NCBI RefSeq assembly: GCF_056712565.1
Contig: NZ_CM160072.1
Direction: 5' to 3' (one strand)
DNA: 64,000 bases
Part shown: positions 1,089-44,015 of the stretch, one piece after another
How the letters are laid out: every line of letters begins with the position of its first letter
Position numbering within the stretch: position 1 is the stretch's first letter
Program-made: the position numbers and the translations under genes
The notes under the pieces: model-generated
What the model was told of the DNA's origin: nothing
Databases searched by the model: none
The model's input: the letters and a program-made list of their open reading frames with translations, nothing else

Positions 1089-3227
1089 TTAACCTATCTG
1101 CCCATTTCCCAAATGTTTAACGCGGCGCTTAACTTCTTCCTGCTTACCAGCGTTAAACGGACGTGCATCCGGGCTACCTAAATATCCGCACACGCGGCGA
1201 GTCACCGACACACGGGAGGTGTCATGGTTACCACATTTCGGACAAGTGAAGCCTTTGCTGGTGCACTCAAATTCGCCGGTAAAGCCACACTCGTAGCATT
1301 CATCGATCGGTGTGTTGGTGCCGTAATACGGTACATGCTGATAGCTGTAATCCCAGACATCTTCCAGCGCCTTCAGGTTGTGCTGAATGTTTGGATACTC
1401 GCCATAGCAAATGAAGCCACCGTTCGCCAGTGGCGGGTAAGGCGCTTCAAAGTCGATCTTGTCGTACGGGTTCACCTTCTTCTCCACATCGAGGTGGAAA
1501 CTGTTGGTGTAGTAACCTTTATCGGTCACGCCCGGCACCACGCCAAACTCAGCGGTATCGAGACGGCAGAAGCGGTCACACAGGTTCTCACTCGGCGTAC
1601 TGTAGAGGCTGAAACCGTAGCCAGTTTCTTCTTTCCACTGATCCACCGCCTGACGCAGACGCTCAACAATCGCAATACCTTTCGCGCGCAGCTGCTCGTT
1701 GTCGTAAACATGCTCGCCGCCGAACAGCGCGTTAATGGTTTCGTGGATGCCGATGTAACCCAGCGAAATAGACGCACGACCGTTTTTGAAGATTTCAGAA
1801 ACGTCGTCGTCAGCATTCAGACGCACGCCACAAGCGCCTTCCATATAGAGGATCGGGGCTACGCGCGCTTTCACGCCTTCGAGACGAGCGATACGGGTCA
1901 TCAGCGCCTTACGTGCCAACACCAGACGTTCATCCAGCAGCTTCCAGAAGGTGGCTTCATCGCCTTTTGCTTCCAGAGCAATACGCGGCAGGTTCAGGCT
2001 GATCACGCCGAGGTTGTTACGACCATCGTGGATCTGCTCGCCGTTTTCATTTTCCCACACGCCGAGGAAGCTGCGGCAGCCCATCGGGGTTTTAAACGAA
2101 CCGGTGACTTTCACTACCTGATCGTAGTTCAGGATATCCGGATACATGCGCTTGCTTGCGCACTCCAGCGCCAGCTGTTTGATGTCGTAGTTCGGATCGC
2201 CTTTTTTATGGTTCAGGCCATCGCGAATCGCAAACACCAGTTTCGGGAACACCGCCGTTTTACGGTTTTTACCGAGGCCTGCGATACGGTTACGCAGGAT
2301 CGATTCCTGAATCAGGCGCGATTCCCAGCTGGTGCCCAGACCAAAACCAAAGGTTACAAACGGCGTTTGACCGTTGGCGGTATGCAGGGTGTTTACTTCG
2401 TACTCCAGCGACTGGAAGGCATCGTAGCACTCTTTGATGGTACGAGAGTTAGCGTAGCCTTCGGCGTCCGGGATGTTCCACTCTTCTGCGGTCTTGCGAT
2501 GTTTGTTGTAGCTGGCGGTGACAAACGGTGCCAGCACTTCATCGATACGGTTAATGGTGGTGCCGCCATAAATATGGCTGGCGACCTGAGCAATAATCTG
2601 CGCAGTTACCGCGGTTGCCGTAGAGATCGACTTCGGCGGTTCAATCTCGGCGTTCCCCATTTTAAAGCCCTGGGTCAGCATGCCTTTCAGGTCGATCAAC
2701 ATGCAGTTGAACATCGGGAAGAACGGCGAGTAATCGAGATCGTGATAGTGAATATCGCCACGCTCATGTGCCTGCACCACGTCACGCGGCAGCAGGTGCT
2801 GGCGTGCATAGTGTTTAGCCACGATCCCGGCCAGCAGGTCGCGCTGGGTTGGAATCACCTTGCTGTCTTTGTTGGCGTTTTCGTTGAGTAACGAGGAGTT
2901 GGTCTGCTCGACCAGACCACGGATCTCCTGGTTCAGGCGACCGCGTTTTTCACGTTCAATGTCGCGATCGTGACGGTACTCGATGTAGGCACGAGCCAGT
3001 TGTTTGTATGGCCCCGACATCAGCTGGTTTTCAACTGCGGTCTGGATCTCATTGATATCCACTTGGTTGCGGCCCTGCATCTGCTCGCTGACAACCGCAG
3101 CAACAGTGGCGCAATAATCGGCATCATCGACTTCCGCTGCTTTAGCTGCACGCAGAATCGCTTCTTTGATGCGCTCTGATTTAAACGGCACTTTGCAGCC
3201 GTCTCGTTTCATCACATGCGGTGTCAT
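1089..3227 (-). CDS. nrdD: anaerobic ribonucleoside-triphosphate reductase (class III, glycyl radical)
   Basis: 712 aa; C-terminal glycyl-radical motif RVCGYLG and zinc-ribbon cysteines. Confidence 0.95.
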   Translation of the reverse strand: MTPHVMKRDGCKVPFKSERIKEAILRAAKAAEVDDADYCATVAAVVSEQMQGRNQVDINEIQTAVENQLMSGPYKQLARAYIEYRHDRDIEREKRGRLNQEIRGLVEQTNSSLLNENANKDSKVIPTQRDLLAGIVAKHYARQHLLPRDVVQAHERGDIHYHDLDYSPFFPMFNCMLIDLKGMLTQGFKMGNAEIEPPKSISTATAVTAQIIAQVASHIYGGTTINRIDEVLAPFVTASYNKHRKTAEEWNIPDAEGYANSRTIKECYDAFQSLEYEVNTLHTANGQTPFVTFGFGLGTSWESRLIQESILRNRIAGLGKNRKTAVFPKLVFAIRDGLNHKKGDPNYDIKQLALECASKRMYPDILNYDQVVKVTGSFKTPMGCRSFLGVWENENGEQIHDGRNNLGVISLNLPRIALEAKGDEATFWKLLDERLVLARKALMTRIARLEGVKARVAPILYMEGACGVRLNADDDVSEIFKNGRASISLGYIGIHETINALFGGEHVYDNEQLRAKGIAIVERLRQAVDQWKEETGYGFSLYSTPSENLCDRFCRLDTAEFGVVPGVTDKGYYTNSFHLDVEKKVNPYDKIDFEAPYPPLANGGFICYGEYPNIQHNLKALEDVWDYSYQHVPYYGTNTPIDECYECGFTGEFECTSKGFTCPKCGNHDTSRVSVTRRVCGYLGSPDARPFNAGKQEEVKRRVKHLGNGQIG

Positions 3228-3419
3228 GATCGCTCCATATTTTTAAGAACAGGTTATCCACAGAAATTGGGAAAGGCGTTTTCCGGTTTTTTCGTTTCGT
3301 TTTCCGGTGCTTTCCGCAATCGCCATCCGCTTATCCACAACGCCGCACCTTTTTCGTGGGGAGCTGTAGTAGCAATTATAGTCGATTAATACAACATATT
3401 GGGTTGGGACGCATTTTAA

Positions 3420-3480
3420 AGTCTATATATAGTGCTTTGCATCAAGGATGTTTGAACTTTTTTTGATGTAGCTCAAAGTA
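3420..3480 (-). promoter_or_regulatory. nrdDG promoter region with NrdR-box-like palindrome (ctatatatagtg) and FNR-like site (ttgatgtagctcaa)
   Basis: motifs seen in sequence upstream of nrdD; assignment rests on known anaerobic FNR and NrdR regulation of nrdDG. Confidence 0.4.
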
Positions 3481-3620
3481 AAAAGCAGAGCGTACGGATG
3501 ACGGGCGCTACAGCGATATGTAAATTTTTTAATGAATTTTTTGATTATAAAATCAACAAAAACAACATGCTGACAGGCAAAACCCCGGAATGACAGGCAT
3601 TACCGGGGCTTAGCGAAGAT

Positions 3621-5276
3621 TTACTTCTGTAACCACCAGACAGCCTCAAAAGGCCGTAAAGTCATGGCACAGGGTTGTGGTGAGGCTTCTTCGTAGTTAT
3701 GCATCACAAGCTGCCAGTTGCCGAGCATTTTCCCTGGCTGCCAGGGTTGGGTCTCACGGCTAAGGTTGGCAATGACCAGCAAGGTTTGCCCCTTCCACTC
3801 ACGGCGATAGCACCACAATACAGGGCTGTTTGGCAGCAGATCCTGGTAATCGCCCCATGTCAGGACGGCTTCTTGCTTACGCAGTGCGATTAACTTTTGG
3901 TAGGTGTAAAACACCGAGGACTCATCGGCCAGCGCTGCTTCTACGTTGATTTCCTGATAGTTATCGCCCAGGCCAATCCACGGTTCGCCAGCCGTAAACC
4001 CGGCATTATCGCCGTTGGTCCATTGCATGGGGGTGCGACTGTTGTCACGGGATTTACTGGCGAGGATTGCCAATAACTCGTCGGCATCACGCCCATCGTT
4101 GCGCAGCTCGGCAAACATATTGAGGCTCTCCACGTCGCGATAGTCAGTAATGCGCGTGAAATGTGGGTTGGTCATGCCAATCTCTTCGCCCTGGTAGATA
4201 TACGGCGTTCCCTGCATGCCATGCAGCACCATCGCCAGCATTTTTGCCGCAGGCACACGGTATTCACCTTCATCACCAAAGCGAGAAACAATGCGCGGCT
4301 GATCGTGGTTACACCAGAACAAGGCATTCCATGCCACGTTGTGCATTCCTTGTTGCCAGTGGCGGAACAATGTTTTCAACGCCACAAAGTCAGGTTTAGC
4401 CAGCGTCCATTTTTCACCACCGGGATAATCGACCTTCAGGTGATGAAAATTAAAGGTCATCGACAATTCACTGCCTGTCAGTGCCGCGTATCGCTGGCAA
4501 TGCTCAAGGCTGGTGGAGGACATTTCACCTACGGTCATTAACCCGCGTGGCGTAAACACATCGCGGTTCATCTCGTGCAAAAATTCGTGTGCTCGTGGCC
4601 CGTCGGTGTAGAAGCGACGCCCGTCGCCATCCAGGTCTTCAGGGTAACGCGGGTCTTTGGAGATCAGATTCACCACATCCAGGCGCAACCCGTCGACCCC
4701 ACGATTGGCCCAGAACTCACAGACTTTTTTCAGCTCTGCGCGTACCGCTGGATTCTCCCAGTTGAGATCCGCCTGTTCTGGTGCAAAGAGATGCAAATAG
4801 TACTGTTCGCTTTCCGCATGCCAGCGCCACGCACTACCACCGAATTTTGAACGCCAGTTGTTCGGTGGCGTTTCTGGTTCTCCATCGCGCCAGATATAAA
4901 ACTGGCGGTAAGGGCTTTCTTTGTTCAGCGCCTCGCGAAACCAGGCATGTTGGGTAGAGGTATGGTTAAACACCATATCGAGAATGATACGAATCCCACG
5001 CGATTTTGCCTGTGTCACCAGTTCGTCAAAATCGTCCAGCGTGCCATAGGTGGGATCAATCGCCGTATAATTCGCTACGTCGTAACCGTTATCGACCTGG
5101 GGAGAGACATAAAAGGGGGTTAGCCAGATGGCATCAACGCCCAGTTTATGCAGATAGTCCAGACGCTGGATAACGCCACGTAAATCGCCGGTGCCGCTAC
5201 CCGTGGTGTCCTGAAAACTCTTTGGATAAATCTGGTAGATAACGCCGTTTTGCCACCAGTGGGGAAGATGAGTCAT
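3621..5276 (-). CDS. treC: trehalose-6-phosphate hydrolase (GH13)
   Basis: GH13 alpha-glucosidase family sequence; start placed at MTHLPHWW (551 aa) rather than the longer ORF. Confidence 0.92.
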   Translation of the reverse strand: MTHLPHWWQNGVIYQIYPKSFQDTTGSGTGDLRGVIQRLDYLHKLGVDAIWLTPFYVSPQVDNGYDVANYTAIDPTYGTLDDFDELVTQAKSRGIRIILDMVFNHTSTQHAWFREALNKESPYRQFYIWRDGEPETPPNNWRSKFGGSAWRWHAESEQYYLHLFAPEQADLNWENPAVRAELKKVCEFWANRGVDGLRLDVVNLISKDPRYPEDLDGDGRRFYTDGPRAHEFLHEMNRDVFTPRGLMTVGEMSSTSLEHCQRYAALTGSELSMTFNFHHLKVDYPGGEKWTLAKPDFVALKTLFRHWQQGMHNVAWNALFWCNHDQPRIVSRFGDEGEYRVPAAKMLAMVLHGMQGTPYIYQGEEIGMTNPHFTRITDYRDVESLNMFAELRNDGRDADELLAILASKSRDNSRTPMQWTNGDNAGFTAGEPWIGLGDNYQEINVEAALADESSVFYTYQKLIALRKQEAVLTWGDYQDLLPNSPVLWCYRREWKGQTLLVIANLSRETQPWQPGKMLGNWQLVMHNYEEASPQPCAMTLRPFEAVWWLQK

Positions 5277-5325
5277 TACGTTATTCCTGCAAATGCGAGG
5301 GGGCGCAATTGCGCCCCGAAGAAAA

Positions 5326-6747
5326 TTAAACAATGTCCAGCGTGCCCAGGCGGTATTTCCGCTGATAGATAAACGAGGTGAGTACAATCGGGATGATGAT
5401 GGCGATAGCCATTGCCAGCGCAAACACCTGCCAGTAGCTCGGTTGAATCGAGAGAATTCCCGGCAGGCCGCCTACGCCGATGCCATTCGCCATAACGCCG
5501 TTCAGGCCGCATAGCAATCCTGCCAGACCAGAACCAATCATCGCGCACAGCATCGGGAAGCGATATTTCAGGTTGATGCCGTACATTGCAGGCTCAGTGA
5601 CCCCAAGCCAGGCGGAGATCGCCGCAGGCACGGAGATCTCGCGTTCATTGTGCTTGCGGCTGGAAATGATAATACCTATCACAGCGGAGCCCTGAGCGAT
5701 ATTCGACAGCGCAATCAGCGGCCACACTGGCGTGCCACCCATGCTTTGAATCATCTGCAAATCAATAGCAAGCGTGGTCTGGTGTACGCCGGTGATCACC
5801 AGCGGGGCGTACAGGAAGCCAAACAATGCCGCGCCAATCGGAGCAAAGCTGCCGGTCATCAGGTGACGTACCGCAAAGGCAACGCCATCGCCAATCATGC
5901 GACCAAACGGACCAATCAGCGCATGGGCGAGGAACACCGCGAGGATCAGCGAACAGACGGGCACCACCACCAGGTAGAGGTAATCCGGCACGATGCGCTT
6001 AAGACGAGTTTCAATAACGCCCAGCGCCAGCCCGGCTAACAGTGCCGGAATAACCTGTGCCTGATAGCCCACTTTGGCGATGCTGAACATGCCAAAGTTC
6101 CATACTTCCGGCAGCTGCTGCCCGAGCAGATAAGCGTTCATCAACTGTGGGGAAACCAGCGTCACGCCAAGCACGATACCGAGGATCGGTGTACCGCCCA
6201 TTTTTTTCACCGCTGACCAGCAAATCCCGACCGGCAGGTAGAAGAAGATCGCTTCACCGATCAACCACAGAAAATCGTAGATCGTTTGCAGGGAAGGGTA
6301 CATTTGCGCCAGCGTTTGACCGTTGCTCATGGGCAAATCGCCGATCACATTGCGAAAACCGAGGATCAAACCGCCGCTAATCAACGCGGGCAGCAACGGG
6401 AAGAAAATCTCCGCGAAATGAGAGATCAACTGCTCATGCCATTTCATATTCTGCCGGGCGGCTTTTTTTACCTGCTCTTTATCAACCTGCGCCTGTCCGG
6501 TTGACGCTATCAGTGCTTGATAGTAATCACCCACGTTGGTGCCAATCACCACCTGAAATTGCCCGGCATTGGTGAAACAGCCTTTCACCATGGGGAGTTG
6601 CTCAATTTCTTTCGGTCTGGCATTGGCCGGTTGGTTGAGGACAAAGCGCAGACGAGTAATACAGTGGCTCACCGTCGCAATATTGCCGCGCCCGCCGACC
6701 AGTTCAATCAACCGATCGATATCCGTTTGGTTTATTTTGCTCATCAT
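5326..6747 (-). CDS. treB: PTS trehalose-specific EIIBC component
   Basis: 473 aa; EIIB cysteine motif VSHCITRLRF followed by polytopic EIIC domain. Confidence 0.93.
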   Translation of the reverse strand: MMSKINQTDIDRLIELVGGRGNIATVSHCITRLRFVLNQPANARPKEIEQLPMVKGCFTNAGQFQVVIGTNVGDYYQALIASTGQAQVDKEQVKKAARQNMKWHEQLISHFAEIFFPLLPALISGGLILGFRNVIGDLPMSNGQTLAQMYPSLQTIYDFLWLIGEAIFFYLPVGICWSAVKKMGGTPILGIVLGVTLVSPQLMNAYLLGQQLPEVWNFGMFSIAKVGYQAQVIPALLAGLALGVIETRLKRIVPDYLYLVVVPVCSLILAVFLAHALIGPFGRMIGDGVAFAVRHLMTGSFAPIGAALFGFLYAPLVITGVHQTTLAIDLQMIQSMGGTPVWPLIALSNIAQGSAVIGIIISSRKHNEREISVPAAISAWLGVTEPAMYGINLKYRFPMLCAMIGSGLAGLLCGLNGVMANGIGVGGLPGILSIQPSYWQVFALAMAIAIIIPIVLTSFIYQRKYRLGTLDIV

Positions 6748-6865
6748 AAAGCCCCATGGCAGATGACATTTTTGGTTGGCTGCAGAATATATTGCGCGGA
6801 AAAATTTAAAAACGGGAACGTTCCCGAAACGCAGCGAAGATCACAATTTATCGTTCAGGAAACGA

Positions 6866-7813
6866 TCAGGACAGGGTGGCGGGGATGATGATTTGTTGCG
6901 GTTCGCTGCGCCCGGTGACCTGCGCGATCAACTGGCAGGCCGCCTGGCGTCCAGCTTCGGCGTAACCGGGATCTACGGTGACGATCTCCGGATGGAGGAA
7001 TTTCATTAACGGTGTATTACCGACGCTCGCCAGTTGCAAGGTGTCGATGCGTTGCTCTTGCAGGTATTTACTTGCGCCAAGTGCCAGCGTGTCGGTTGCG
7101 CACAGTAACGCGGTAGTTTCAGGCGTAATCACTTTTGCTACGTTCTCATAGCCTTGCTTCATAGCAAGCCCTGGCAGAGCGGCAACGGGATGCAATTTAT
7201 GCGCTTTGCAGAACGCCAGGTAGGCTTCGTGACGTCGCTTACCGGTCGTCACGTCACTATGCGGCACGCCGAGATAACTGATATTACGATGCCCCTGGTC
7301 ATACAGCCGTTGCATCAGGATCTTGATTGCCCCTTCGTCGTCATAACAGACCGAAGCAAAGCCTTTTGCGTCACGCGCCAGCAGAACCAGCGATGACTGC
7401 CAGTGGGCTAACATTTCTTCTGTTATGCCGGTAAAACCGAACAGCACTACGCCGTCGATATTACGCCGTTTCAGGACCCCCAAATGTTCGGCAACTAATT
7501 GTGGGGAAAACTGACTTTCCATCATGATTGGATCGTAACCTTGTTCATAGAACGCTGGCAGCATGGTTTGAACGGCGAGATTTTCTGACAACGAATCCAG
7601 ACGGGTAACAATGATGGCGACCACTTTATCGCTTTGCCCACGCATAGCGCGCGCAGAGCGGGAAGGGGAAAATCCATGCTGATTCATCACTGCTTCAACA
7701 CGCTCGCGCGTGCGCTGGCTCACGCCGCTTTCGTTATTCAGCACCCGGGAAACCGTAGATTTCCCCACGCCGCTTAAGCGCGCGATGTCTTTGATGGTCA
7801 GCCGATTTTGCAT
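6866..7813 (-). CDS. treR: trehalose operon repressor (LacI family)
   Basis: 315 aa; N-terminal HTH (IKDIARLSGVGKSTVSRVLN) and periplasmic-binding-like effector domain. Confidence 0.92.
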   Translation of the reverse strand: MQNRLTIKDIARLSGVGKSTVSRVLNNESGVSQRTRERVEAVMNQHGFSPSRSARAMRGQSDKVVAIIVTRLDSLSENLAVQTMLPAFYEQGYDPIMMESQFSPQLVAEHLGVLKRRNIDGVVLFGFTGITEEMLAHWQSSLVLLARDAKGFASVCYDDEGAIKILMQRLYDQGHRNISYLGVPHSDVTTGKRRHEAYLAFCKAHKLHPVAALPGLAMKQGYENVAKVITPETTALLCATDTLALGASKYLQEQRIDTLQLASVGNTPLMKFLHPEIVTVDPGYAEAGRQAACQLIAQVTGRSEPQQIIIPATLS

Positions 7814-7997
7814 CCTGTTGTCCCATAACGTGTTGTTTAATTATTTGAGCCTAACTTTACCTGTGCATTCAGCAATGGGTAAAGTCTGGTTTATCGTTGG
7901 TTTAGTTGCCAGCAGGTATTATATCGCCATAAATGCTACGAATATTATTGGATTCTCCTTATTATTTGCGGCGCTTTTTTCACTTACCGGAGGTTAT

Positions 7998-8051
7998 ATG
8001 GAACCTGATCCCACGCCTCTCCCTCGACGGAGATTAAAACTTTTCCGGTAA
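7998..8051 (+). CDS. mgtL: mgtA leader peptide (proline-rich, 17 aa)
   Basis: [17 protein letters not shown] short ORF in the mgtA 5' leader; embedded in an artefactual longer six-frame ORF. Confidence 0.8.
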
Positions 8052-8191
8052 GCCCGTCTTTTCACGGCGTTACCGGATGCGTAAGGCCGTGACGTTTTAA
8101 CGTCCCTGCTCAGCTTTATTACCTTCAGGTAAGGCTTCGCCACGCCTGAAGACATTTCTGTACTGTTTCAGACAGTGCGGAGGGACTCCTT
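8052..8191 (+). promoter_or_regulatory. mgtA 5' leader (Mg2+/proline-responsive attenuation region)
   Basis: position between mgtL and mgtA; established knowledge of the mgtA leader. Confidence 0.5.
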
Positions 8192-12965: not shown

Positions 12966-13100
12966 TTATCTCCTGACGCCTGGGCAAAAAAAAGCCCCTC
13001 GATTGAGGGGCTGGGAATGGGTGATCAACGGGAAGAAAAACGGCAGGCCAGCGTCTTTTTTCAGACGCGGTAAGACAAAATGTCGAACACACTGAACCAT
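12966..13100 (-). CDS. pyrL: pyrBI operon leader peptide (44 aa)
   Basis: reverse-strand translation gives MVQCVRHFVLPRLKKDAGLPFFFPLITHSQPLNRGAFFCPGVRR. Confidence 0.85.
   Translation of the reverse strand: MVQCVRHFVLPRLKKDAGLPFFFPLITHSQPLNRGAFFCPGVRR
12984..13011 (-). terminator. pyrBI attenuator hairpin (gcccctcaatcgaggggc followed by U-run)
   Basis: GC-rich hairpin plus T8 run on the coding strand inside the pyrL ORF. Confidence 0.8.
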
Positions 13101-13189
13101 ACATCCTCCCGGCAAATTGTCCGGCATTATACTCAGCTCTGAGAGAGGATCAAGAAGATGATGCAGTTATAAAGCAAGGCAAACGGTTA

Positions 13190-13678
13190 TCATGAATATA
13201 TATTCAATTTTAATAAGTAATTAATTTGCTTGTGCACCAGGGCTGTACGCTTTACCACACGTGGTGCGACCCAAACGATATTGCTGCCAGCAATCACGCC
13301 AAGAATTTCTGGCAAAGCATGGAAATCAAGGATTCGTGCTACTGCCCGACCATATCCGGCGACGGTATGGATAAGGATAAATTCACCATTATGCTCGACA
13401 CTCAGGACCATTTCAGCGACGGATCGACCTGCGTCAGGTGTGGGAAGTAATTGAGGATTCACCGAATAAATTTTTTGTCCTTTTGTATTTCTAATTTTTA
13501 TGACTCCCAGCAATTTCAGTAGTCGTGAAACGGTTGACTGACTGATACTGTCAAAGCCATGGTTTTGCAAATCGCGGCGGATTTCCTCCTGTGAAAGATA
13601 ACTTTTTTCGGTAATCAGGCGCTGACAGACCGCCAGTTGCTTCTTTTCTTTGGCGGAGTAATCATCGTATTCCTTCAT
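13190..13678 (-). CDS. ArgR-family transcriptional regulator, candidate ADI-cluster regulator
   Basis: 162 aa from MKEYDD (RBS aaaggtg upstream); winged-helix N-domain (SQSTVSRLLKLLG) and ArgR-like C-terminal oligomerisation domain. Confidence 0.75.
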   Translation of the reverse strand: MKEYDDYSAKEKKQLAVCQRLITEKSYLSQEEIRRDLQNHGFDSISQSTVSRLLKLLGVIKIRNTKGQKIYSVNPQLLPTPDAGRSVAEMVLSVEHNGEFILIHTVAGYGRAVARILDFHALPEILGVIAGSNIVWVAPRVVKRTALVHKQINYLLKLNIYS

Positions 13679-13793
13679 AATGCACCTTTTATTTATTATT
13701 ACCTGATGATATTTTTCACATTTTATAATGTGAGAGTGGTTCATTTATCACTACACCAGATTTGAAGGCCGCTTTGATAAGCGGCCTGTCGCG

Positions 13794-15197
13794 TTAAATC
13801 ATCGCGGCGATACTCAGCACAATCATATTCAACATCGTGAGAATCAGCAGTAGCGGTGCTACCCATCTCAGATAACGGACCCAGGGTACACGGGCAATCG
13901 CCAGACCGCCCATCACTACCGCAGAGGTTGGCGTAATCAAATTAACCACCCCGGAAGCAGACTGATAAGCGGTCACCACCAGATCGCGTTGTACATGAGC
14001 AAAATCAGCGAGTGGAGCCATTATTGGCATCGTTAACACTGCAAGGCCGGAAGATGAGGGAACCAGAAAAGAGAGCAATACTTCCAGCCAATAGGTCACG
14101 TTGATGAAAACAGTGGTGGAAAGCCCTGAAACCAGATTCTCAGCACTGTGCAGAATTGTGTGCGTAATCATGCCGTTATCCATCACGACCACAATACCGC
14201 GGGCGATGCCGATAATCAGTGCCACACCAAGGAGATCCCGCGCGCCGTCAATAAAGGTACTGGTGAAGGTTTCTTCGCCCATGCGGGCAATGACACCCAC
14301 GATGACCGCAGCTGCCAGAAAGACAGCAGAGATTTCCGCCATCCACCAACCCAGTACCGCTACGCCGTAAATCATAAAGGCAAAGGATGCAGCAAAAAGT
14401 ATCAGGATCGCTTTGCGCGTGGGGGTAAATTCCAGCATCGTTTCTGAACGATTTCCCAGAAAATGCGCCTGGTTTTCAGCCATCTTATCCGCCACGATAG
14501 AGCTTTCCGGACTGTTGCGAACTTTGCGGGCATAACGCATAACCCAGTAAACACAAATCACGTAGCCTACTAACAGCAAAATAACACGCAGCAAAATGCC
14601 CTGAGTAAAGGGGATCCCTGCGGCGTTGGCAGCAATGACGGTAGCAAATGGGTTAATGGTTGAGCCCAGCGTGCCAATGCCCGATCCCAATAACACTGTG
14701 GCGGCAGCGACCAGAGGATCAAAGCGGGCAGCCATCATGACGGGCACCAGCAACGTGTAGAAGGGGAGTGATTCTTCCGCCATCCCATAAATAGTACCGC
14801 CAGCAGCGAAGAGCGCCATCAGGATCGGAATCATCCACTCTTCCCGACCATTAAGGCGAGTTGTCACTCGTTCGATACCGGCATCTATTGCTCCGGTTTT
14901 ATTTACTACTCCCAAAAATCCACCGATGATCAGGACAAACAGCGCGACATCAATCGCTCCCGCAGTGTAGGTTTGATGGTTGTACAAGCCGTCGATGGGC
15001 GCTAACAGGACAGCCGTAATACCCTGTGGTTGCGCCTCAACAGGTGCGTAAGTGCCTGCAACAGGAACTTCCTTTCCCAGTGCGGCATTTGTCACCATCT
15101 GATATTTTCCCGCAGGTACAATCCAGGTCATTGCCGCAACTAACGCAATCAGCACGAACAAGATGGTATAAGCGGTGGGAAATTTGAATTTACCCAT
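13794..15197 (-). CDS. YfcC-family polytopic membrane transporter, candidate arginine/ornithine exchanger
   Basis: 467 aa from MGKFKF (RBS ggag); many hydrophobic helices; sits between arcB-like and argR-like genes. Confidence 0.7.
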   Translation of the reverse strand: MGKFKFPTAYTILFVLIALVAAMTWIVPAGKYQMVTNAALGKEVPVAGTYAPVEAQPQGITAVLLAPIDGLYNHQTYTAGAIDVALFVLIIGGFLGVVNKTGAIDAGIERVTTRLNGREEWMIPILMALFAAGGTIYGMAEESLPFYTLLVPVMMAARFDPLVAAATVLLGSGIGTLGSTINPFATVIAANAAGIPFTQGILLRVILLLVGYVICVYWVMRYARKVRNSPESSIVADKMAENQAHFLGNRSETMLEFTPTRKAILILFAASFAFMIYGVAVLGWWMAEISAVFLAAAVIVGVIARMGEETFTSTFIDGARDLLGVALIIGIARGIVVVMDNGMITHTILHSAENLVSGLSTTVFINVTYWLEVLLSFLVPSSSGLAVLTMPIMAPLADFAHVQRDLVVTAYQSASGVVNLITPTSAVVMGGLAIARVPWVRYLRWVAPLLLILTMLNMIVLSIAAMI

Positions 15198-15253
15198 AAT
15201 GTGATCTCCATAATCACGGGCATACGCCACTCGTCGACGCATGCCCGTCAGGG

Positions 15254-16258
15254 TTAGTCGCCGAGAGTTGCTACCATCACCGCTTTAATGGTGTGCATCC
15301 GGTTTTCTGCTTCATCGAAAACAATGGAGTGGGCAGATTCAAAAACCTCATCAGTTACTTCCAGTCCTTTGAGGCCGTAGGCCATCTCGATCTCGCGTCC
15401 TACTGTGGTGTGCTCATTATGGAAGGCGGGCAGGCAGTGCATAAATTTGACTTCAGGGTTACGCGTGGCAGTAATCACCTGTTGATTGATCTGATAAGGT
15501 GTCATAAGACTCACTCGTTCTGCCCAGGCTTCTTTTGGCTCTCCCATCGAAACCCAAACATCCGTATAGAGAAAATCAACGTCGTATACGCCTTCTTCCA
15601 CATCCTCTGTCAGGGTGATTCTCGCCCCAGTCACGCTGGCGATCTCACGGCATTGTGTTACCAGCGCTTCATCTGGCCAGAAAGATTTTGGTGCCACCAG
15701 ACGGATATCCATCCCCATTTTTGCAGCACCAACCATCAGCGAGTTCCCCATGTTATTTCGGGCATCACCAAGATACGCAAAGCTCAGCTCTGGCAGCGTT
15801 TTGCCTGGCGCATGTTCCAGCATGGTCATTAAATCCGCGAGGATCTGTGTCGGGTGAAATTCATTGGTCAGTCCGTTCCATACCGGAACACCAGCGAACT
15901 CACCTAATTCTTCAACGATATTCTGACCATAACCGCGATACTCAATACCGTCATACATGCGTCCGAGTACGCGAGCGGTATCTTTCATTGATTCTTTATG
16001 GCCGATTTGTGAGCCGCTGGGGCCGATGTAAGTCACCTGCGCACCTTGATCAAAGGCCGCGACTTCAAAGGCACAGCGGGTACGGGTAGAGGATTTTTCA
16101 AAAATCAACGCAATGTTTTTACCGACCAGCGTTTGTTTTTCGTTTCCAGATTTCTTGGCGGCTTTAAGATTGATAGCCAAATCAATCAGGTATTGAATCT
16201 CTGCTGGGGTGTAATCAAGCAGCTTAAGAAAATTACGGTTTTTCAGTGAAGTAGCCAT
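15254..16258 (-). CDS. arcB: ornithine carbamoyltransferase (catabolic, ADI pathway)
   Basis: 334 aa from MATSLK; STRTR and HCLPA motifs; paralog of argI five kb away. Confidence 0.85.
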
Positions 16259-16268
16259 GGGGATGTCC

Positions 16269-17213
16269 TTATAAAAATGGATCAAGCGTGGTTATGGGGG
16301 TATCAAGGCGAATAAGAGTGCCTTTGTCTCCGGCGAGAATTTCCGGACCATCTGCAAGAGAGCCGATCCCTGCAATGCCCCGGCACTGACTAACAAACTT
16401 TGCGCAGGCGGTGACTTTCGGCCCCATAGACCCGGCATCAAACTGCATTTCGTTGAGTAATTCCGGCGTGACCTGGGCCAGCGGGCGTTGGGTTGGCTTG
16501 CCCCAGTCGAGATATACTGCGTCCGCATCAGTGAGGATCAACAAGGCGTCAGCATGGATCTGACTTGCCAGTAGCGCGGCTGAAAGATCTTTGTCGATAA
16601 CCGCTTCAATCCCATGGTATCCATCGGCTTTTTCAACCACCGGAACACCACCGCCACCATTACAGATCACCAGATGATCGTGGGCGATCAGTGTCTGGAT
16701 GGCATCCCGCTCGACGATGCGTTTAGGTTGTGGAGAAGGTACGACCCGGCGGAAAGAGTGACCATCTGCTTTGAAAACCCAGCCTTTTTCTGCCTGTAGT
16801 ACCTGAGTCTGAGCGTGGTCATAAATTGGGCCGATGTACTTAGTTGGGTTACTGAAGGCGGGATCGTTGGCATCCACTTCAACCTGCGTCAGCAGAACGC
16901 TGATTTCACGTTGTGGTAGTTGATTTTTCAGCGCCTGTTGTAGCATGTAGCCGATCATCCCCTGGCTTTCGGCCCCCAGAATGTCGAGTGGATAGGGAGC
17001 GACATGGGCATAGGCGCTATTTTGAAGTGCCAGAAGTCCAACTTGTGGACCATTCCCGTGAACCAGTACAACCCGCCAGTGTTGAGTCAGTTGGGCGATA
17101 GTTTTAGCCGCAAGATCGATATTTTTACGTTGGATTTCTGCTTCGAGTGGTTCGCCTCGTTTAAGCAGGGCATTACCGCCGAGAGCGATAACCAGTGTTG
17201 GTTTGTTTTCCAT
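16269..17213 (-). CDS. arcC: carbamate kinase
   Basis: start placed at [17 protein letters not shown] (RBS aaggaag); amino-acid kinase fold. Confidence 0.85.
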
Positions 17214-17223
17214 GATCTCTTCC

Positions 17224-18447
17224 TTAGATACCGTCACGATGCAAAGGGCAACTCATGCAACGTGCGCCGCCACGTCCGCGGCCTAATTCATCACCGGGGA
17301 TGGGTAAAACGGTGATGCCTGCTTTGTCATATTTTTCGTTAGTCCAGATGTTGCGCTCGTAGCCCACTACCACTCCCGGCCGAAGCGTGAGCACATTGTT
17401 AGCGTCATTCCACTGTTCGCGTTCTGCCTCAAAGGCATCACCCCCCGTGGTGATTAAACGTACCTGGTCAATACCGAGGGCTTTTTCGATAGCATGGAGG
17501 AGTGTGCTTTCTTGAGTACGTTTCAGGCCGCCGTGACCGTCAGGTGTTAGCGTCCAGCAATTAACATCCGGGCGCACAACTTCGGGATAAACCGAGAAGG
17601 TGTCGATATCGATATGAGTCATAACGGTGTCAAGATGCATACAGGAGCGGTGTTTAGGCAGCTCAACAGCGATTACCCGTTCAGCCTGACGATGTTTAAA
17701 CAATGCCTGAGCAAGAAACTCGATTCCTTGTGGCGTGGTGCGTTCAGACATGCCGATCAACACGGCCCCCCGACCAATCACCAGCACATCACCACCTTCT
17801 AACGTGGCGTGGTCATAATTAATATTCTCGTCGCCGAAATATTTAATAAATTCGCCGCCAGCAAATTGTGGATGCCAGCGATAAATAGCGCGTAGATTAT
17901 TGGTTTCACGTTGGCGAGCAGGTTTTGCCATTGGATTAATCGATACACCGTTATAAATCCAGCATGAGGTATCACGCGTAAATAAATGATTCGGTAACGG
18001 CTTCATAATGAAATCATTAATATCGTGGGTATCAACCACCATATTTTTAATTGAGGCGGGAATTTCACTATAAGTCAGCCCACCACTTAAATGACGAGCA
18101 AGGTCCCGGTGTGACATCTCTGCAAGCCAGGTGCGAACGTCAGTAGCAAACGTAGGGCCGAGTCGGTAATCTGATATTTGTGTTTCCAGTAACCAGCTTT
18201 TGGCTTCCGGGATATCCAATGTTTGTGTTAGTAAATCAGTGAGTAACAGAACTTCTATCCCTTGCTGGCGCAGCGTATTGGCGAAAATATCATGCTCTTC
18301 ACCTGCCCGCTCAACGGACAATACATCGTCAAATAACAACTCCTGGCAATTGGATGGTGTTAGACGTTTCAGACTGAGATTTGGGCGATGCAACATAACG
18401 CTGCGTAGTTGTCCAATTTCAGAACCAACATAATGCTTTTCCATCAT
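17224..18447 (-). CDS. arcA: arginine deiminase
   Basis: 407 aa; ADI-family sequence with C-terminal catalytic cysteine region (ARCMSCPL). Confidence 0.88.
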
Positions 18448-18567
18448 TATTCCTTTAACACTTTTTCAAAAATAAAGAGGAGATGGCTGCAAACAAATTA
18501 AATGCTTGTAGTCAGGTCTGTTCAGTAATTTTCAGATGCAATGATTCAGTTTATTTCTTCCAGAAAA

Positions 18568-18583
18568 TGTGACGACTTTCACA
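18568..18583. promoter_or_regulatory. perfect CRP/FNR-family palindrome TGTGA-N6-TCACA upstream of arcA
   Basis: tgtgacgactttcaca read directly, about 125 bp upstream of the arcA start in a 674-bp AT-rich intergenic region. Confidence 0.5.
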
Positions 18584-19094
18584 CCAGTGATGATATTAAT
18601 AATCGCAGTTAATAATATTTGATGCGGTTCTGATAAATGATAAAGAAACAAAATACGATAATGCATTAATACGCAAATATACGCAGAGTTATTCTTCGTT
18701 GTTAATTGATTGTTTTATTTTTCAGGAAATGCCTTTAAGTATAAAGCATTGATATTTATGTATATTTTAATATTCATTGCATATCTATGCGAAAGAATAA
18801 GGTGATTATTTTTCACAGCACTATTTTCACGGGATAACTATGACAGCACGGGCATTAAAAGCTAAGAAAATGAACTGTGATCTGACTGAGAGTTTTCTTT
18901 TAACATATGCAATAACAAGATATTAGGACCAAAATACATAGCTAAGTTATAAGATTTATGCAGCAAAACTGCATACAAAATTACTCCTGCTTAACATCAG
19001 TACAACATCTCCAGCAATAAACATGCGCAAGGGCAAAACCTGATGATTTTTCTATGGTGAGAGGTGGCTTTTTTTCGTATAAGGAAAGAAGTGA

Positions 19095-19574
<480 letters not shown>

Positions 19575-19619
19575 GTGATCACTGCCGGGGGGCGACCTGT
19601 GCCGCCGCCCGGCAAAACG

Positions 19620-20624
19620 TTATTTTGCTAATGTAGCGACCATAACAGCTTTTATGGTGTGCATCCGGTTTTCTGCCTGGTCAAAGACAATACTTGCCGG
19701 AGATTCAAAGACTTCATCGGTGACTTCCATTCCACCATACAGACCGAATTCTGCGGCCATTTTTTTACCCAGCGTGGTTTGCTCATCATGAAATGCAGGC
19801 AGACAGTGGAGGAACTTAACCTGCGAATTACCGGTCAGGGCCATCATTTTGCTATTCACCTGATAGTCACGCAGCAGGGCAATACGCTCCGCCCATTTCT
19901 CTTTGGGCTCACCCATCGATACCCAGACATCGGTATAGATAAAGTCTGCACCTTTAACCCCAGAGGCGATATCTTCCGTCAAGGTGATTTTACCCCCGTG
20001 TTTTTGTGCCAGAGCACTGCATTCGGCGACCAGCGCAGCTTCCGGCCAGCATGCCTGTGGCGCGACCAGACGCAAATCCAGACCGGTAAGCGCCGCAGCT
20101 TCGAGCATCGAATTGCCCATGTTGTTACGCGCGTCACCTGCATAGACCAGCGTCATTTCGTTGAATGCTTTGCCGGGCAAATGCTCCTGCATGGTGAGGA
20201 GATCCGCCAGCAGCTGCGTGGGGTGGAACTCATTGGTCAGGCCGTTCCATACTGGCACGCCAGCGTATTCCGCCAGTGTTTCGACAATCTCCTGACCATA
20301 GCCGCGATACTGAATACCGTCATACATGCGACCAAGCACGCGGGCAGTGTCTTTAATCGACTCTTTGTGACCAATCTGGCTGCCGCTTGGGCCGAGATAA
20401 GTAACGCGAGCACCCTGGTCATATGCGGCAACTTCGAAAGAGCATCGGGTACGGGTCGAGTCTTTTTCGAAGATGAGCGCGATGTTTTTGCCAGTGAGTC
20501 TGGCTTCTTCTTTACCGCTTTTCTTATCGGCTTTCAGCTTCGCGGCTAACTGCAACAAGCTGTTGAGTTCAGCTGGCGTGAAATCGAGTAATTTCAGGAA
20601 ATGCTTATGATAAAACCCGGACAT
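19620..20624 (-). CDS. argI: ornithine carbamoyltransferase (anabolic)
   Basis: 334 aa from [20 protein letters not shown] and HCLPA motifs; ARG boxes upstream. Confidence 0.93.
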
Positions 20625-20649: not shown

Positions 20650-20688
20650 AATGAATTAAAATTCAATCTATATGGATGATTATTCATT
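20650..20688 (-). promoter_or_regulatory. argI operator: two tandem ARG boxes 3 bp apart
   Basis: aatgaattaaaattcaat and tatggatgattattcatt match the TNTGAAT-N4-ATTCANW consensus. Confidence 0.8.
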
Positions 20689-38831: not shown

Positions 38832-38916
38832 GCCGAAGTGGCGAAATCGGTAGACGCAGTTGATTCAAAATCAACCGTAGAAATACGTGCCGGTTCGAGT
38901 CCGGCCTTCGGCACCA
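38832..38916 (+). tRNA. leuX: tRNA-Leu (anticodon CAA)
   Basis: 85-nt sequence gccgaagtggcgaaatcggtagacgcagttgattCAAaatcaacc...ggcacca with long variable arm and encoded CCA. Confidence 0.95.
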
Positions 38917-39176
38917 AAAGTATGTAAATAGACCTCAACTGAGGTCTTTTTTTATGCCTGAAATCCAGTGTTTATCTATCTTTCCCGCTATATTAACTCT
39001 CTCAAGGTCAACCGATATCAACGTACATCTACCAACATATGTTGGTACAGATGATGGTATTTCCGGTTCGATAATGCTTGTACCAACAGGGAGGGAATAC
39101 GATGGCATTAACAGATATCAAAGTCAGAGCAGCCAAGCCAACGGATAAGCAATATTAGCTGACTGATGGTGGCGGT

Positions 39177-40367
39177 ATGCATCTGCTTGTCCATCCAAAT
39201 GGTTCTAAGTACTGGCGTTTGCAGTACCGTTATGAGGGAAAGCAAAAAATGCTGGCACTTGGGGTTTATCCTGAAATCACACTAGCGGATGCCAGAGTAC
39301 GTCGTGACGAGACGCGTAAGCTGCTTGCGAATGGCGTCGATCCGGGAGACAAAAAGAAAAATGATAAGGTTGAACAGAGTAAAGCACGAACCTTTAAAGA
39401 AGTCGCGATTGAGTGGCATGGCACCAATAAAAAGTGGTCTGAAGATCACGCCCATCGTGTGCTAAAAAGTCTTGAAGATAATCTTTTTGCAGCGCTTGGT
39501 GAACGTAATATCGCTGAGTTAAAAACTCGAGATTTATTAGCACCTATTAAGGCCGTAGAAATGTCTGGACGTCTTGAAGTGGCCGCTCGTCTTCAGCAGC
39601 GCACTACAGCCATCATGCGCTATGCAGTGCAAAGTGGGTTAATTGATTATAACCCGGCACAAGAGATGGCTGGGGCGGTTGCTTCCTGTAATCGACAACA
39701 TCGTCCCGCGCTTGAATTAAAGCGCATCCCTGAGTTGCTTACAAAAATAGATAGCTATACTGGTAGGCCGCTAACCCGATGGGCGATAGAACTCACTTTG
39801 CTGATCTTTATTCGGTCCAGTGAGCTGCGTTTTGCTCGTTGGTCAGAGATCGATTTCGAAGCGTCTATATGGACTATCCCACCGGAGCGGGAGCCTATTC
39901 CTGGAGTGAAACATTCCCATAGAGGCTCAAAAATGCGTACAACGCATCTAGTGCCTCTTTCAACGCAAGCTCTTGCAATTTTAAAGCAGATAAAACAGTT
40001 TTATGGGGCCCATGACTTGATATTTATTGGTGATCACGATTCGCACAAACCCATGAGTGAGAATACGGTAAATAGTGCGTTACGGGTCATGGGGTATGAT
40101 ACAAAAGTAGAGGTTTGTGGTCATGGCTTTCGAACAATGGCCTGTAGTTCATTGGTCGAATCAGGTCTGTGGTCTCGTGATGCTGTTGAACGCCAGATGA
40201 GCCACATGGCGCGAAATTCAGTGAGGGCCGCGTATATCCATAAAGCAGAGCATCTGGAAGAACGGCGATTGATGCTACAGTGGTGGGCCGATTTTCTGGA
40301 TGTAAACAGAGAAAGGTTTATCAGTCCATTTGAATATGCAAAGATTAATAATCCATTAAAACAGTAA
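39177..40367 (+). CDS. intB: P4-type tyrosine integrase; the ancestral N-terminus upstream (ATG 39102) is cut off by an in-frame TAG at 39156
   Basis: 396-aa ORF with C-terminal tyrosine-recombinase catalytic region (HGFRTMA...RAAYIH); upstream in-frame MALTDIKVRAAKPTDKQY then TAG. Confidence 0.85.
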   Translation: MHLLVHPNGSKYWRLQYRYEGKQKMLALGVYPEITLADARVRRDETRKLLANGVDPGDKKKNDKVEQSKARTFKEVAIEWHGTNKKWSEDHAHRVLKSLEDNLFAALGERNIAELKTRDLLAPIKAVEMSGRLEVAARLQQRTTAIMRYAVQSGLIDYNPAQEMAGAVASCNRQHRPALELKRIPELLTKIDSYTGRPLTRWAIELTLLIFIRSSELRFARWSEIDFEASIWTIPPEREPIPGVKHSHRGSKMRTTHLVPLSTQALAILKQIKQFYGAHDLIFIGDHDSHKPMSENTVNSALRVMGYDTKVEVCGHGFRTMACSSLVESGLWSRDAVERQMSHMARNSVRAAYIHKAEHLEERRLMLQWWADFLDVNRERFISPFEYAKINNPLKQ

Positions 40368-40371
40368 TCAT

Positions 40372-40390
40372 CCCGGGCAAATGCCCGGGA
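40372..40390 (+). terminator. hairpin after intB (cccgggca-aat-gcccggg)
   Basis: perfect inverted repeat immediately after the intB stop. Confidence 0.55.
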
Positions 40391-40539
40391 ATTATTCTAG
40401 GATTATTTTCTTTGTTAAAAAAGACAAACGGTATTAACTGATGTATTTACTATTTACCGCTCCCTGCAGGGGGGATTATCAGAATCCGCGGTTATTCATT
40501 ATTTATATACATTCAATAAAAAAGTAACTGGATTTGCCC

Positions 40540-41445
40540 CTATATTTCCAGACACCTGTTATCACTTAACCCATTACTGGCTTGCTGCCGTAGATATTCC
40601 CGTGGCGAGCGATAACCCAGTGCACTATGCGGATGCCATTCGTTATAATGCTCGAACGCCTCTGCAAGGTTCTTTGCTGCCGTTAACCCGTCTGGTTTGG
40701 GCATGACACTGATGTAGTCACGCTTTATCGTTTTCACGAAGCTCTCTGCTATGCCGTTACTCTCCGGACTCCGCACCGCCGTGCTCTTCGGTTCAAGCCC
40801 CAACATCCGGGCAAACTGCCGTGTTTCATTAGCCCGGTAGCATGAACCATTATCCGTCAGCCACTCTACTGGAGACGCCGGAAGCTCGTTGCCGAAGCGG
40901 CGTTCCACCGCTCCCAGCATGACGTCCTGTACTGTTTCACTGTTGAAGCCGCCCGTAGTGACCGCCCAGTGCAGTGCCTCACGGTCACAGCAGTCCAGCG
41001 CGAACGTGACTCGCAGTTTTTCTCCGTTATCACAGCGGAACTCGAACCCGTCAGAGCACCATCGCTGATTACTTTCTTTCACAGCCACTCTGCCTGTATG
41101 TGCCCGTTTCGATGGCGGTACAGCAGGTTTTCGCTCAAGCAACAGCGCATTCTGGCGCATGATCCGGTAAACACGTTTGGCATTGATCGCAGGCATACCA
41201 TCAAGTTCTGCCTGTCTGCGAAGCAGCGCCCATACCCGACGATAACCATACGTGGGCAGCTCTCCGATAACATGGTGTATACGGAGAAGCACATCCGTAT
41301 CATCAGTGTGACGACTGCGGCGGCCATCCATCCAGTCATCGGTTCGTCTGAGAATGACGTGCAACTGCGCACGCGACACCCGGAGACAACGGCTGACTAA
41401 GCTTACTCCCCATCCCCGGGCAATAAGGGCGCGTGCGCTATCCAC
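40540..41445 (-). CDS. insD: IS2 transposase OrfB
   Basis: 301 aa DDE transposase within IS2. Confidence 0.9.
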
Positions 41446-41768
41446 TTTTTTGCCCGTCCATATTCAACGGCTTCTTTGAGGAGTTCATTTTCCATCGTTT
41501 TCTTGCCGAGCAGGCGCTGGAGTTCTTTAATCTGCTTCATGGCGGCAGCAAGTTCAGAGGCAGGAACAACCTGTTCTCCGGCGGCGACAGCAGTAAGACT
41601 TCCTTCCTGGTATTGCTTACGCCAGAGAAATAACTGGCTGGCTGCTACACCATGTTGCCGGGCAACGAGGGAGACCGTCATCCCTGGTTCAAAGCTCTGC
41701 TGAACAATTGCGATCTTTTCCTGTGTGGTACGCCGTCTGCGTTTCTCCGGTCCTAAGACATCAATCAT
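41403..41768 (-). CDS. insC: IS2 OrfA (HTH)
   Basis: starts [26 protein letters not shown]; overlaps insD in the -1 frame. Confidence 0.85.
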
Positions 41769-42099
41769 CTGCTCTCCAATGACTAGTCTAAAAACTAGTA
41801 TTAAGACTATCACTTAAATAAGTGATATTGGTTGTCTGGAGATTCAGGGGGCCAGTCTAGTAACCTCATAAAAAATCCTGTACTCACAGGGTGATGCGGG
41901 ATAACTGACGTAAGGAGTGCTGCAGGGATTTGATGGTCCCTTGTGCTGATATGAATACGGATATTTTATACAGAATACTTTTCAGTACAAGCGACTGTAT
42001 TACAGTCTGCCATATATGATTACCTGTGATCAGGAAGAATAAGTGGCTGAGGTTTCAAACTGTCTGCCGGTATATTCCTCTCTCCCTTAAAAACCATAA

Positions 42100-43330: not shown

Positions 43331-43649
43331 GGCCTTCGCTCCTCTGACATTACTCAGTATTTTCACTACTACACCCCATCTGCCATCCATAACAACCGAT
43401 TCACCCCCTCGCGAGGCGTTGTTGCCCGTCACCCGGACAGACACCGTTATGGATTTCTCTTGTTGCACGATCGATCAATTGTTATGCATGCTGACACCAC
43501 AACCCCGGTGGGTATGACCGATGCCTTTCTCACTCTCTTCCCGGTCATCGTCGGCCTTCCCCGTTATTGTGGCGTGTCAGCACCCTCGACGGCATTTCGA
43601 TGGCTGCTCAGTGTTCACTCACGTTACGGCCCGCATAACCCGTTGACTT

Positions 43650-44015
43650 CCTGAAGAAGTCGTTTCAGGGAGAGATTCAGCCCTTTTGTTACCTCCTGGA
43701 CCGCTTCTTGTCCTTCCAGTCGGAGCGAGAGTTAGCCGGGGCGGACTTTCACCGACGGAAAGATCGTGCATTTCAAGGCACACACAACAATATCTGCGAG
43801 CGTGCTATCCGTCCGGTCGTTATGGGACGAAAGGCCTGGTTGTTCGCTGGTTCACTGGTGGCCGGGAACCGCGCGGCACAGATAATGAGCCTTCTGGGAA
43901 CCGCAGTCTGGAGCCACATGCTTGGCTGACGGACGTCCTGACGCGTCTGCCGGAGTGGCCGGAGGAGAGGTTGGCTGAGTTACTGCCTCTTGAGGGCTTT
44001 ACCTTCTTCGGGTAA
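43650..44015 (+). pseudogene. yjgZ: IS66-family transposase C-terminal remnant (109-aa ORF plus overlapping frame)
   Basis: two overlapping frames carry ERAIRPVVMGRKAWLFAGS...AAQIMSLLGTA and HAWLTDVLTRLPEWPEERLAELLP, the conserved C-terminal IS66 transposase region. Confidence 0.6.

Follow-up and report, generated by a model that had tools for sequence, protein, structure and literature searches.

A YfcC-family gene in the arginine deiminase module of Escherichia coli probably encodes an ArcE-type arginine/ornithine exchanger

Results

The gene at 13794..15197 (minus strand) of a 64,000-nucleotide stretch of an Escherichia coli chromosome, called the window here, very likely encodes the ArcE-type arginine/ornithine exchanger of the E. 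coli arginine deiminase (ADI) operon. Its 467-aa product belongs to Pfam family PF03606, shares 43% identity with Streptococcus pneumoniae ArcE and is predicted to adopt an elevator-type fold of the ion-transporter (IT) superfamily. The assignment to ArcE, made from sequence, draws jointly on this identity, on clade membership and on tight synteny with the arc genes; low-identity homology alone would be insufficient, because the PF03606 family is functionally mixed. As a secondary transporter of the ArcE type (TC 2.A.118), the protein would take in one L-arginine for each L-ornithine released, in an electroneutral exchange that proceeds without metabolic energy, and it would probably move the pathway intermediate L-citrulline too. 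Imported arginine would then pass through ArcA, ArcB and ArcC in turn.

On the minus strand, an open reading frame of 482 aa extends from 15242 to 13794, and an internal ATG at 15197 gives a protein of 467 aa with the N-terminus MGKFKF. A putative ribosome-binding site, GGAG at 15209-15206, lies 8 nt 5' of this ATG. Orthologues from Salmonella, Citrobacter and Cronobacter are each 467 aa long and align with a query coverage of 100%, and the start at 15197 was therefore preferred over the ATG at 15242. In E. coli HS13-1, the coordinates 13794-15197 correspond exactly to a RefSeq CDS named 'YfcC family protein' (WP_001298046.1, 467 aa). The module region 13100-18600 (5.5 kb) was 100% identical to that of HS13-1 and of many other E. 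coli isolates, mostly human-derived, and 44000-52000 of the window also matched HS13-1 at 100%.

Five genes, arcA-arcC-arcB-arcE-argR-like, all on the minus strand, form a module between treR-mgtA-ridA-pyrI-pyrB-pyrL and tabA(yjgK)-argI-rraB. The gene for arginine deiminase, arcA (17224..18444), matched PF02274 with 453 bits and TIGR01078 with 531 bits, and that for carbamate kinase, arcC (16269..17213), matched NF009008 with 513 bits and TIGR00746 (arcC) with 382 bits; RefSeq names both accordingly. The catabolic ornithine carbamoyltransferase gene arcB (15254..16258), annotated as argF, carries OTCace_N and OTCace domains and matches NCBIfam ornithine carbamoyltransferase models. The last gene (13190..13678), 'arginine repressor' in RefSeq, encodes an ArgR-like regulator with N- and C-terminal Arg_repressor domains. 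It is an ArgR paralogue and the counterpart of Salmonella STM4463, and its matches to ArgR models all stayed below cutoff (110 bits against a cutoff of 194). The transporter gene thus lies inside a cluster with arcA, arcB and arcC, and no APC-family gene occurs in the five-gene module. Gaps are 10 bp between arcA and arcC, 10 bp between arcC and arcB, 56 bp between arcB and arcE, and 115 bp between arcE and the argR-like gene, so that the slot between arcB and the regulator, with the 56-bp gap that the first-pass annotation had reported, was borne out.

The arcB-arcE spacer contains a GC-rich stem-loop without a U-run (15216..15248, minus strand; -26 kcal/mol, z -3.9), followed by a small hairpin around GGAG (15206-15209). 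Six of eight related modules that were folded (five other genera and one E. coli plasmid) had hairpins of differing sequence in the same position, with z from -2.8 to -5.5; these were the modules of Citrobacter, Enterobacter, an unclassified proteobacterial MAG, Escherichia sp., Superficieibacter and the E. coli plasmid. In the Aeromonas spacer, UUUU comes directly after the hairpin, and the fold of the Erwinia spacer was indistinguishable from that of shuffled sequence (z -0.4). RNAalifold gave no consensus for the arcB-arcE spacers, because their hairpins are not alignable in sequence, and single-sequence folds were used instead. These folds suggest that the arcB-arcE hairpin is a stabiliser or partial terminator, which may determine how much enzyme is made relative to transporter. 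Directly after the arcE stop codon lies a 9-bp stem-loop (13766..13787, minus strand; spacer fold -31 kcal/mol, z -4.5), which is not a canonical terminator because no U-run follows the stem.

A terminator scan from arcA to the end of arcE returned nothing credible; the two matches inside arcE were 5-bp stems, fewer than expected by chance. Because of this and of the 10-bp and 56-bp gaps, arcE is probably transcribed together with arcA-arcC-arcB from the region upstream of arcA. This AT-rich intergenic region of 677 bp (18445..19121, minus strand; GC 0.415 for 18001-20000) is the presumed promoter/operator, with two sigma-70-like sites at 18705-18676 and 18793-18764. Scans for FNR boxes and ARG boxes 5' of arcA gave weak matches with 2-3 mismatches, and window-wide counts were not above those in shuffled sequence; as a control, the scans did recover the argI operator, which is already known.

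The transporter for which exchange has been measured is S. pneumoniae ArcE. This protein exchanges with high affinity (arginine 0.6 uM, ornithine 1 uM), in an electroneutral manner that is independent of metabolic energy, and it complemented an arcD1D2 deletion strain of Lactococcus lactis (Noens & Lolkema 2016, PMC5300872). We took protein P0410 (503 aa) as S. pneumoniae ArcE, matching it to the published protein by its source names ('arginine-ornithine antiporter', 'C4-dicarboxylate anaerobic carrier, arginine transporter' and 'YfcC family protein') and by its gene context, arcA-arcB-arcC-[PF03606]-arcT (Peptidase_M20), as in the published cluster. No proteins named for S. pneumoniae were among the matches listed in the search with the window protein or in that seeded with S. 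oricebi; P0410 was reached by cluster look-up on large clusters from the search with the S. oricebi arc-linked protein.

The window protein and P0410 are homologous over nearly their full length, with residues 4-443 aligned to 9-479 (43% identity, E 2e-123). Both belong to PF03606, both are encoded in an arcABC cluster and both score below the cutoff of the YfcC model; the predicted fold class of the window protein agrees with the ST3 class stated for ArcE (PMC5300872). P0410 is longer by 36 residues and has an insertion, placed by the alignment after residue 277 of the window protein, that the latter lacks, and the gene orders differ (arcA-C-B-E-argR against arcA-B-C-E-arcT). Since the substrates of the enteric protein are read from 43% homology and context, whereas transport was measured for the streptococcal one, substrate preference may differ between the two.

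Topology and structure prediction had been proposed as a check, and the results agreed in describing a polytopic protein with an elevator-type IT fold. PF03606 (DcuC) matched residues 6-464 with 385 bits, the hydropathy profile had 14 peaks, some of them overlapping (19-residue window), and the AlphaFold2 model contained about 20 helices (pLDDT 91.7, pTM 0.87, 66-sequence alignment). The 467-aa polytopic protein of the first-pass annotation, also present as an ORF and as an identical RefSeq CDS, is therefore a sound description. A sequence search of the PDB returned no solved homologue. In Foldseek the model matched the AbgT proteins YdaH and MtrF, VcINDY and TRAP SiaQM, with TM up to 0.65. 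All significant structural matches were elevator-type IT-superfamily proteins, and LeuT-fold or APC proteins were absent from the matches listed, so that the predicted fold is that of the IT superfamily (MemGen ST3) and not the LeuT fold. Identity to AbgT (YdaH, MtrF), ArsB, DASS (VcINDY) and TRAP-M proteins is only 10-16%, and their substrates and coupling differ.

Two helix-loop-helix hairpins in the model carry two conserved family motifs at their tips, GSTINPF (residues 178-184, between helices 161-177 and 183-193) and PSSSG (residues 380-384, between helices 361-378 and 382-399). If VcINDY and AbgT are a guide, the tips would form the substrate site, and the predicted fold points to an elevator movement in which a transport domain with the two hairpins would shift against a scaffold domain. 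No residues were found that separate arc-linked from unlinked relatives (150 positions were at least 90% conserved in the linked group, none of them at 35% or lower in the unlinked group), and consequently no specificity determinant could be proposed.

The closest structural neighbours include the Na+-coupled symporters VcINDY and TRAP SiaQM, and many relatives of the same fold (DASS, TRAP) are symporters, which would fit an H+- or Na+-coupled arginine importer instead of an obligatory exchanger. We consider this very unlikely, since the exchange by S. pneumoniae ArcE is energy-independent and electroneutral (PMC5300872), and since energised uptake would presumably erode the gain from the ADI pathway, which is no more than 1 ATP per arginine.

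The sole NCBIfam match of the window protein was NF008611, 'putative basic amino acid antiporter YfcC'. On this equivalog model (cutoff 500 bits) the window protein scored 286 bits, S. pneumoniae ArcE 262 bits and E. coli K-12 YfcC (b2298) 840 bits. The window protein and K-12 YfcC belong to the same Pfam family and share 29% identity (E 4e-68), and K-12 YfcC adjoins pta rather than arc genes. In a neighbour-joining tree of 85 sequences, which is distance-based and carries no bootstrap support, the window protein and S. pneumoniae ArcE fell inside one large, mostly arc-linked clade, whereas K-12 YfcC and an Enterococcus faecium plasmid homologue lay outside it. The window protein thus groups with arc-linked members rather than with YfcC (43% against 29% identity). 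YfcC proper was rejected on the basis of the score, the identity and the tree position, and the score of 286 bits against the cutoff of 500 marks the protein as a YfcC paralogue, not an orthologue. The identity of a C4-dicarboxylate carrier was also rejected, as the name DcuC comes from the broad Pfam family only and the neighbouring genes are all arginine-catabolic.

ArcD of the APC superfamily (TC 2.A.3.2; L. lactis ArcD1, Pseudomonas aeruginosa ArcD) occupies the same slot in arc clusters and is expected to perform the same exchange, and the two transporters have been described as convergent in function (PMC5300872). The window protein had no AA_permease match in Pfam, and its best BLASTP E value against the APC-type protein YdgI was 14. 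Together with the lack of LeuT or APC proteins among the structural matches listed, this shows that it is not an ArcD homologue; neither the APC sequence family nor the LeuT fold was found, and APC-type ArcD was rejected.

YdgI itself is a core APC-type putative arginine:ornithine antiporter of E. coli, present in 5423 of 5426 genomes, with a score of 508 bits against the cutoff of 591 of the arg_ornith_anti model. Part of the arginine/ornithine flux could go through it, and phenotypes of arcE deletions should for this reason be read with YdgI in mind. Its presence also bears on a different main mode for the enteric protein, with the same family and fold: citrulline/ornithine or arginine/citrulline exchange, with bulk arginine/ornithine exchange shared with YdgI. 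External citrulline would then feed a 'short' ADI pathway (ArcE-ArcB-ArcC), or the transporter would serve as a citrulline overflow valve. S. pneumoniae ArcE does translocate citrulline efficiently, and a short pathway has been proposed, but its affinity for arginine is about 100-fold higher than for citrulline (PMC5300872). Moreover, arcA is always present in the enteric module, and YdgI stays under the equivalog cutoff, its function being only 'putative'. On balance this mode appears improbable. Equally doubtful is the related idea that the enterobacterial ArcE branch (467 aa, without the streptococcal insertion) has diverged to act mainly in citrulline/ornithine or arginine/citrulline exchange and leaves arginine/ornithine to YdgI; if true, the ADI system of the strain would have two transporters and be tuned to citrulline from the gut or the urine. 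Arginine/ornithine exchange by the ArcE-type protein is the reading that we retain.

Synteny was scanned with one genome per species and a 19-sequence alignment subset as query, and each of the 80 loci returned, all from other species, was searched by tblastn with the window ArcA, ArcB and ArcC; a locus was scored as linked when all were found within 8 kb. Among relatives with at least 55% identity, arcA, arcB and arcC lay within 8 kb in 43 of 49; the corresponding counts were 14 of 27 at 45-55% identity and 1 of 4 below 45%. Four of the six unlinked loci at 55% identity or above were on contigs that end near the transporter gene. The two on complete contigs came from an Actinobacillus MAG and from Pseudovibrio stylochi. 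In the former, the transporter gene lies 11 bp downstream of an opine dehydrogenase gene of the octopine/nopaline type. Octopine is a conjugate of arginine and pyruvate, and for this reason we take the Actinobacillus context as arginine-related too.

Gene order varied among relatives (E denoting the transporter gene). It was arcA-arcC-arcB-E in Enterobacterales and Aeromonas, with argR next in Enterobacterales; E-arcA-arcC-arcB in Vibrio, Photobacterium and Salinivibrio; E-arcA-arcB-arcC in alpha-proteobacteria, Marinobacter and Halomonas; arcA-arcB-E-arcC in Bacillus relatives; and arcA-arcB-arcC-E in Streptococcus. The arcABC linkage was seen in Proteobacteria, Firmicutes and one archaeal MAG, and because it survives rearrangement across phyla it is good evidence for a shared function. 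More distant homologues had other neighbours: that on an E. faecium megaplasmid (37% identical) adjoins amidohydrolase and fructoselysine kinase genes, and that of S. pasteuri lies beside unrelated genes.

Such non-arginine contexts, the Pfam name 'C4-dicarboxylate anaerobic carrier' and the lack of arcABC linkage within 8 kb in about half of the relatives at 45-55% identity could indicate a YfcC/DcuC-like carrier of another substrate (a C4-dicarboxylate, a peptide or another amino acid) that is a mere passenger among the arc genes. This has little probability in our view. The arcABC linkage is kept across phyla, rearrangements and plasmids; the nearest characterised relative is an arginine/ornithine exchanger; the sole NCBIfam match is a model for a 'putative basic amino acid antiporter'; and the Actinobacillus exception adjoins the opine dehydrogenase taken as arginine-related.

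The chromosomal version of the module was present in 596 of 5426 complete E. coli genomes. A second version, with 72% DNA and 80% protein identity, was found in 348 records, where 299 of the matching places were on plasmids; about 17% of complete E. coli genomes have either version. One of these plasmids, of the IncF type, carries a complete arcA-arcC-argF-YfcC-argR module between IS elements, and homologues were present on 241 E. coli plasmids in PLSDB. The place that the module takes on the chromosome is occupied in K-12 by yjgH-bdcA-bdcR, which identifies the module as an accessory cassette. The dedicated role as substrate/product exchanger of the ADI cluster that the first-pass annotation had proposed is supported by the 43% identity to ArcE, by the conserved arcABC linkage and by the co-mobilisation of the module on IncF plasmids.

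Discussion

The ArcE-type exchanger proposed here for E. coli is an ordinary finding, because the transporter belongs to an already described family. The family and the exchange that it catalyses have been in print since 2016, as has its occurrence in about half of all arc clusters, and the arc operons of E. coli, on the chromosome of Nissle 1917 as well as on IncF plasmids, are likewise in the literature. Among 1281 species, 124 arc clusters were counted, 63 with an APC-type arcD and 64 with the unrelated arcE (17 against 22 in gamma-proteobacteria); the gene was named arcE in that study, which placed the protein in TC 2.A.118 and, as MemGen [st313]ITB, in the IT superfamily (Noens & Lolkema 2016, PMC5300872). 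The two premises from which the first-pass annotation had started are consequently out of date. One was that ADI operons normally carry an APC-family ArcD, which the counts of 63 and 64 contradict; the other was that the transport substrate is poorly defined, which no longer applies to the ArcE branch, for which exchange of arginine, ornithine and citrulline has been described (PMC5300872). The unusualness that they implied therefore disappears.

Genetic work in relatives is consistent with a role of PF03606-type transporters in the ADI pathway. In Streptococcus suis the gene called 'arcD' is the PF03606 gene (X) in arcA-arcB-arcC-X-arcT. Its mutant grew poorly in chemically defined medium with arginine, neutralised acid more weakly and survived less well inside host cells (PMC4129364). 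An in-frame deletion of arcD in Vibrio fluvialis (order arcDACB) slowed growth at pH 5 and the rise in pH, and led to poorer colonisation of mice (PMC11172107). We infer that this ArcD is also of the PF03606 type by analogy with five other Vibrio species, since all five sampled had this type in the arcD position, with about 77% identity to the window protein.

Closer to the window, deletion and renewed expression of the arc operon of E. coli Nissle 1917 (arcA, arcC, arcB, arcD, arcR) affected pH in an arginine-dependent way (PMC10659395); the gene order described for this operon agrees with that of the window module. A Salmonella cluster has been described with the same gene order as the window module. 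The YfcC-family protein of Salmonella enterica (467 aa) is 90% identical to the window protein and is presumably STM4464 on the LT2 map. In the Nissle and Salmonella papers the gene is named arcD though unrelated to the APC-type ArcD, and the transporter was not studied by itself.

The value of the result lies in annotation, as an ArcE-type gene is carried as 'YfcC family protein' in RefSeq and as 'arcD' in papers. The generic RefSeq name arises because there is no ArcE-specific model; S. pneumoniae ArcE itself falls under the YfcC cutoff. The KEGG model K03758 is one that we take to be specific for the APC-type arcD. If this is so, arcD surveys that use K03758, such as that in PMC10659395, may miss ArcE-type clusters. 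For the arc operon on plasmids, a connection with CTX-M plasmids has been described, together with a trade-off in which urinary infection stands against gut colonisation (Billard-Pomares 2019, as described in bioRxiv 10.64898/2025.12.08.692488). The module has also been associated with fitness in urinary infection. In both the E. coli and the Salmonella literature the gene goes by the name arcD, while the RefSeq name is 'YfcC family protein'.

Chromosomal and plasmid versions of the arc module

The interval between pyrL and tabA (window 13100-19121) holds the arc module here, whereas in K-12 (L089) it holds yjgH-bdcA-bdcR. The window likewise lacks yjgL, a gene that K-12 has between tabA and argI. 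The pyrL-tabA interval is a variable accessory slot. IncF plasmids carry a diverged second copy of the entire arcA-arcC-arcB-arcE-argR module, flanked by IS elements. Compared with the window, this copy shows 72% nucleotide identity, and 80% amino acid identity for the transporter; in E. coli plasmid NZ_CP117046.1 (L002) it occupies 2722-7964. PLSDB contains 241 E. coli plasmids with homologues, and among 5426 complete genomes of E. coli, 943 have one of the two versions.

Other candidate exchangers and family contexts

YdgI, an APC-type putative arginine:ornithine antiporter (K-12 ydgI, L091:5558-6940, outside the window), is core in E. coli (5423/5426 genomes), so that strains with the arc module possess two candidate exchangers that are unrelated to each other. 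A PF03606 gene with 37% identity occurs on 134 Enterococcus plasmids. On the one plasmid examined, E. faecium NZ_CP027401.1 (L003, 5983-7383), it adjoins genes for an amidohydrolase, a fructoselysine-6-kinase and a SIS-domain protein, neighbours that suggest another substrate within the family. An ArcE-like gene, 60% identical, was also seen in an Actinobacillus sp. metagenome-assembled genome (L031:6862-9398), with no arc genes within 8 kb of it. There it follows, 11 bp downstream, an opine dehydrogenase gene of the octopine/nopaline type (PF02317). Octopine is a conjugate of arginine and pyruvate, and for this reason we take the pairing to be a different yet arginine-related context.

Stem-loops in the arcB-arcE spacer

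A GC-rich stem-loop of 10-14 bp without a U-run is present in the arcB-arcE spacer of the window (15198-15253, minus strand), of related modules (L006:7940-8003, L008:4051-4106, L012:7947-8003, L013:7946-8003 and L071:7948-8003) and of the E. coli plasmid copy (L002:5948-6003). In the window the GGAG ribosome-binding site is enclosed by a second, small hairpin. Across genera their sequence varies, but position and strength are conserved (z -2.8 to -5.5). The arcB-arcE stem-loop may act as an intercistronic stabiliser or a partial terminator.

An ARG-box-like site at the end of the argR-like gene

A near-perfect ARG-box-like palindrome with 1 mismatch, CATGAATATATATTCAAT (window 13191-13208), overlaps the argR-like gene at its stop codon and lies ~40 bp upstream of a pyrBI promoter-like site (13153-13126). 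The same ARG-box pattern recovered the boxes of the known argI operator (20650-20688).

The leuX island and other RNA matches

Downstream of tRNA-Leu(CAA) (leuX, 38832-38916), the region is a mosaic island. Its content (39100-52000) comprises a tyrosine integrase, several IS elements (IS3, IS4, IS911 and IS600), a degraded gene for a phosphoethanolamine transferase, nanXY, a gene for a BCCT transporter and, after these, the fec operon; GC falls to 0.36 at 46-48 kb. Inside the island, Rfam matched group II intron domains D1-D4 (RF02003, 69 bits) at 43619-43758 on the minus strand, where the RefSeq annotation has no intron or reverse transcriptase gene. Other Rfam matches in the window were a Mg2+ riboswitch upstream of mgtA (7983-8098, 126 bits) and, in the pepA-lptF region, naRNA4 (26714-26789, 75 bits) and Ysr276 (27623-27817, 183 bits).
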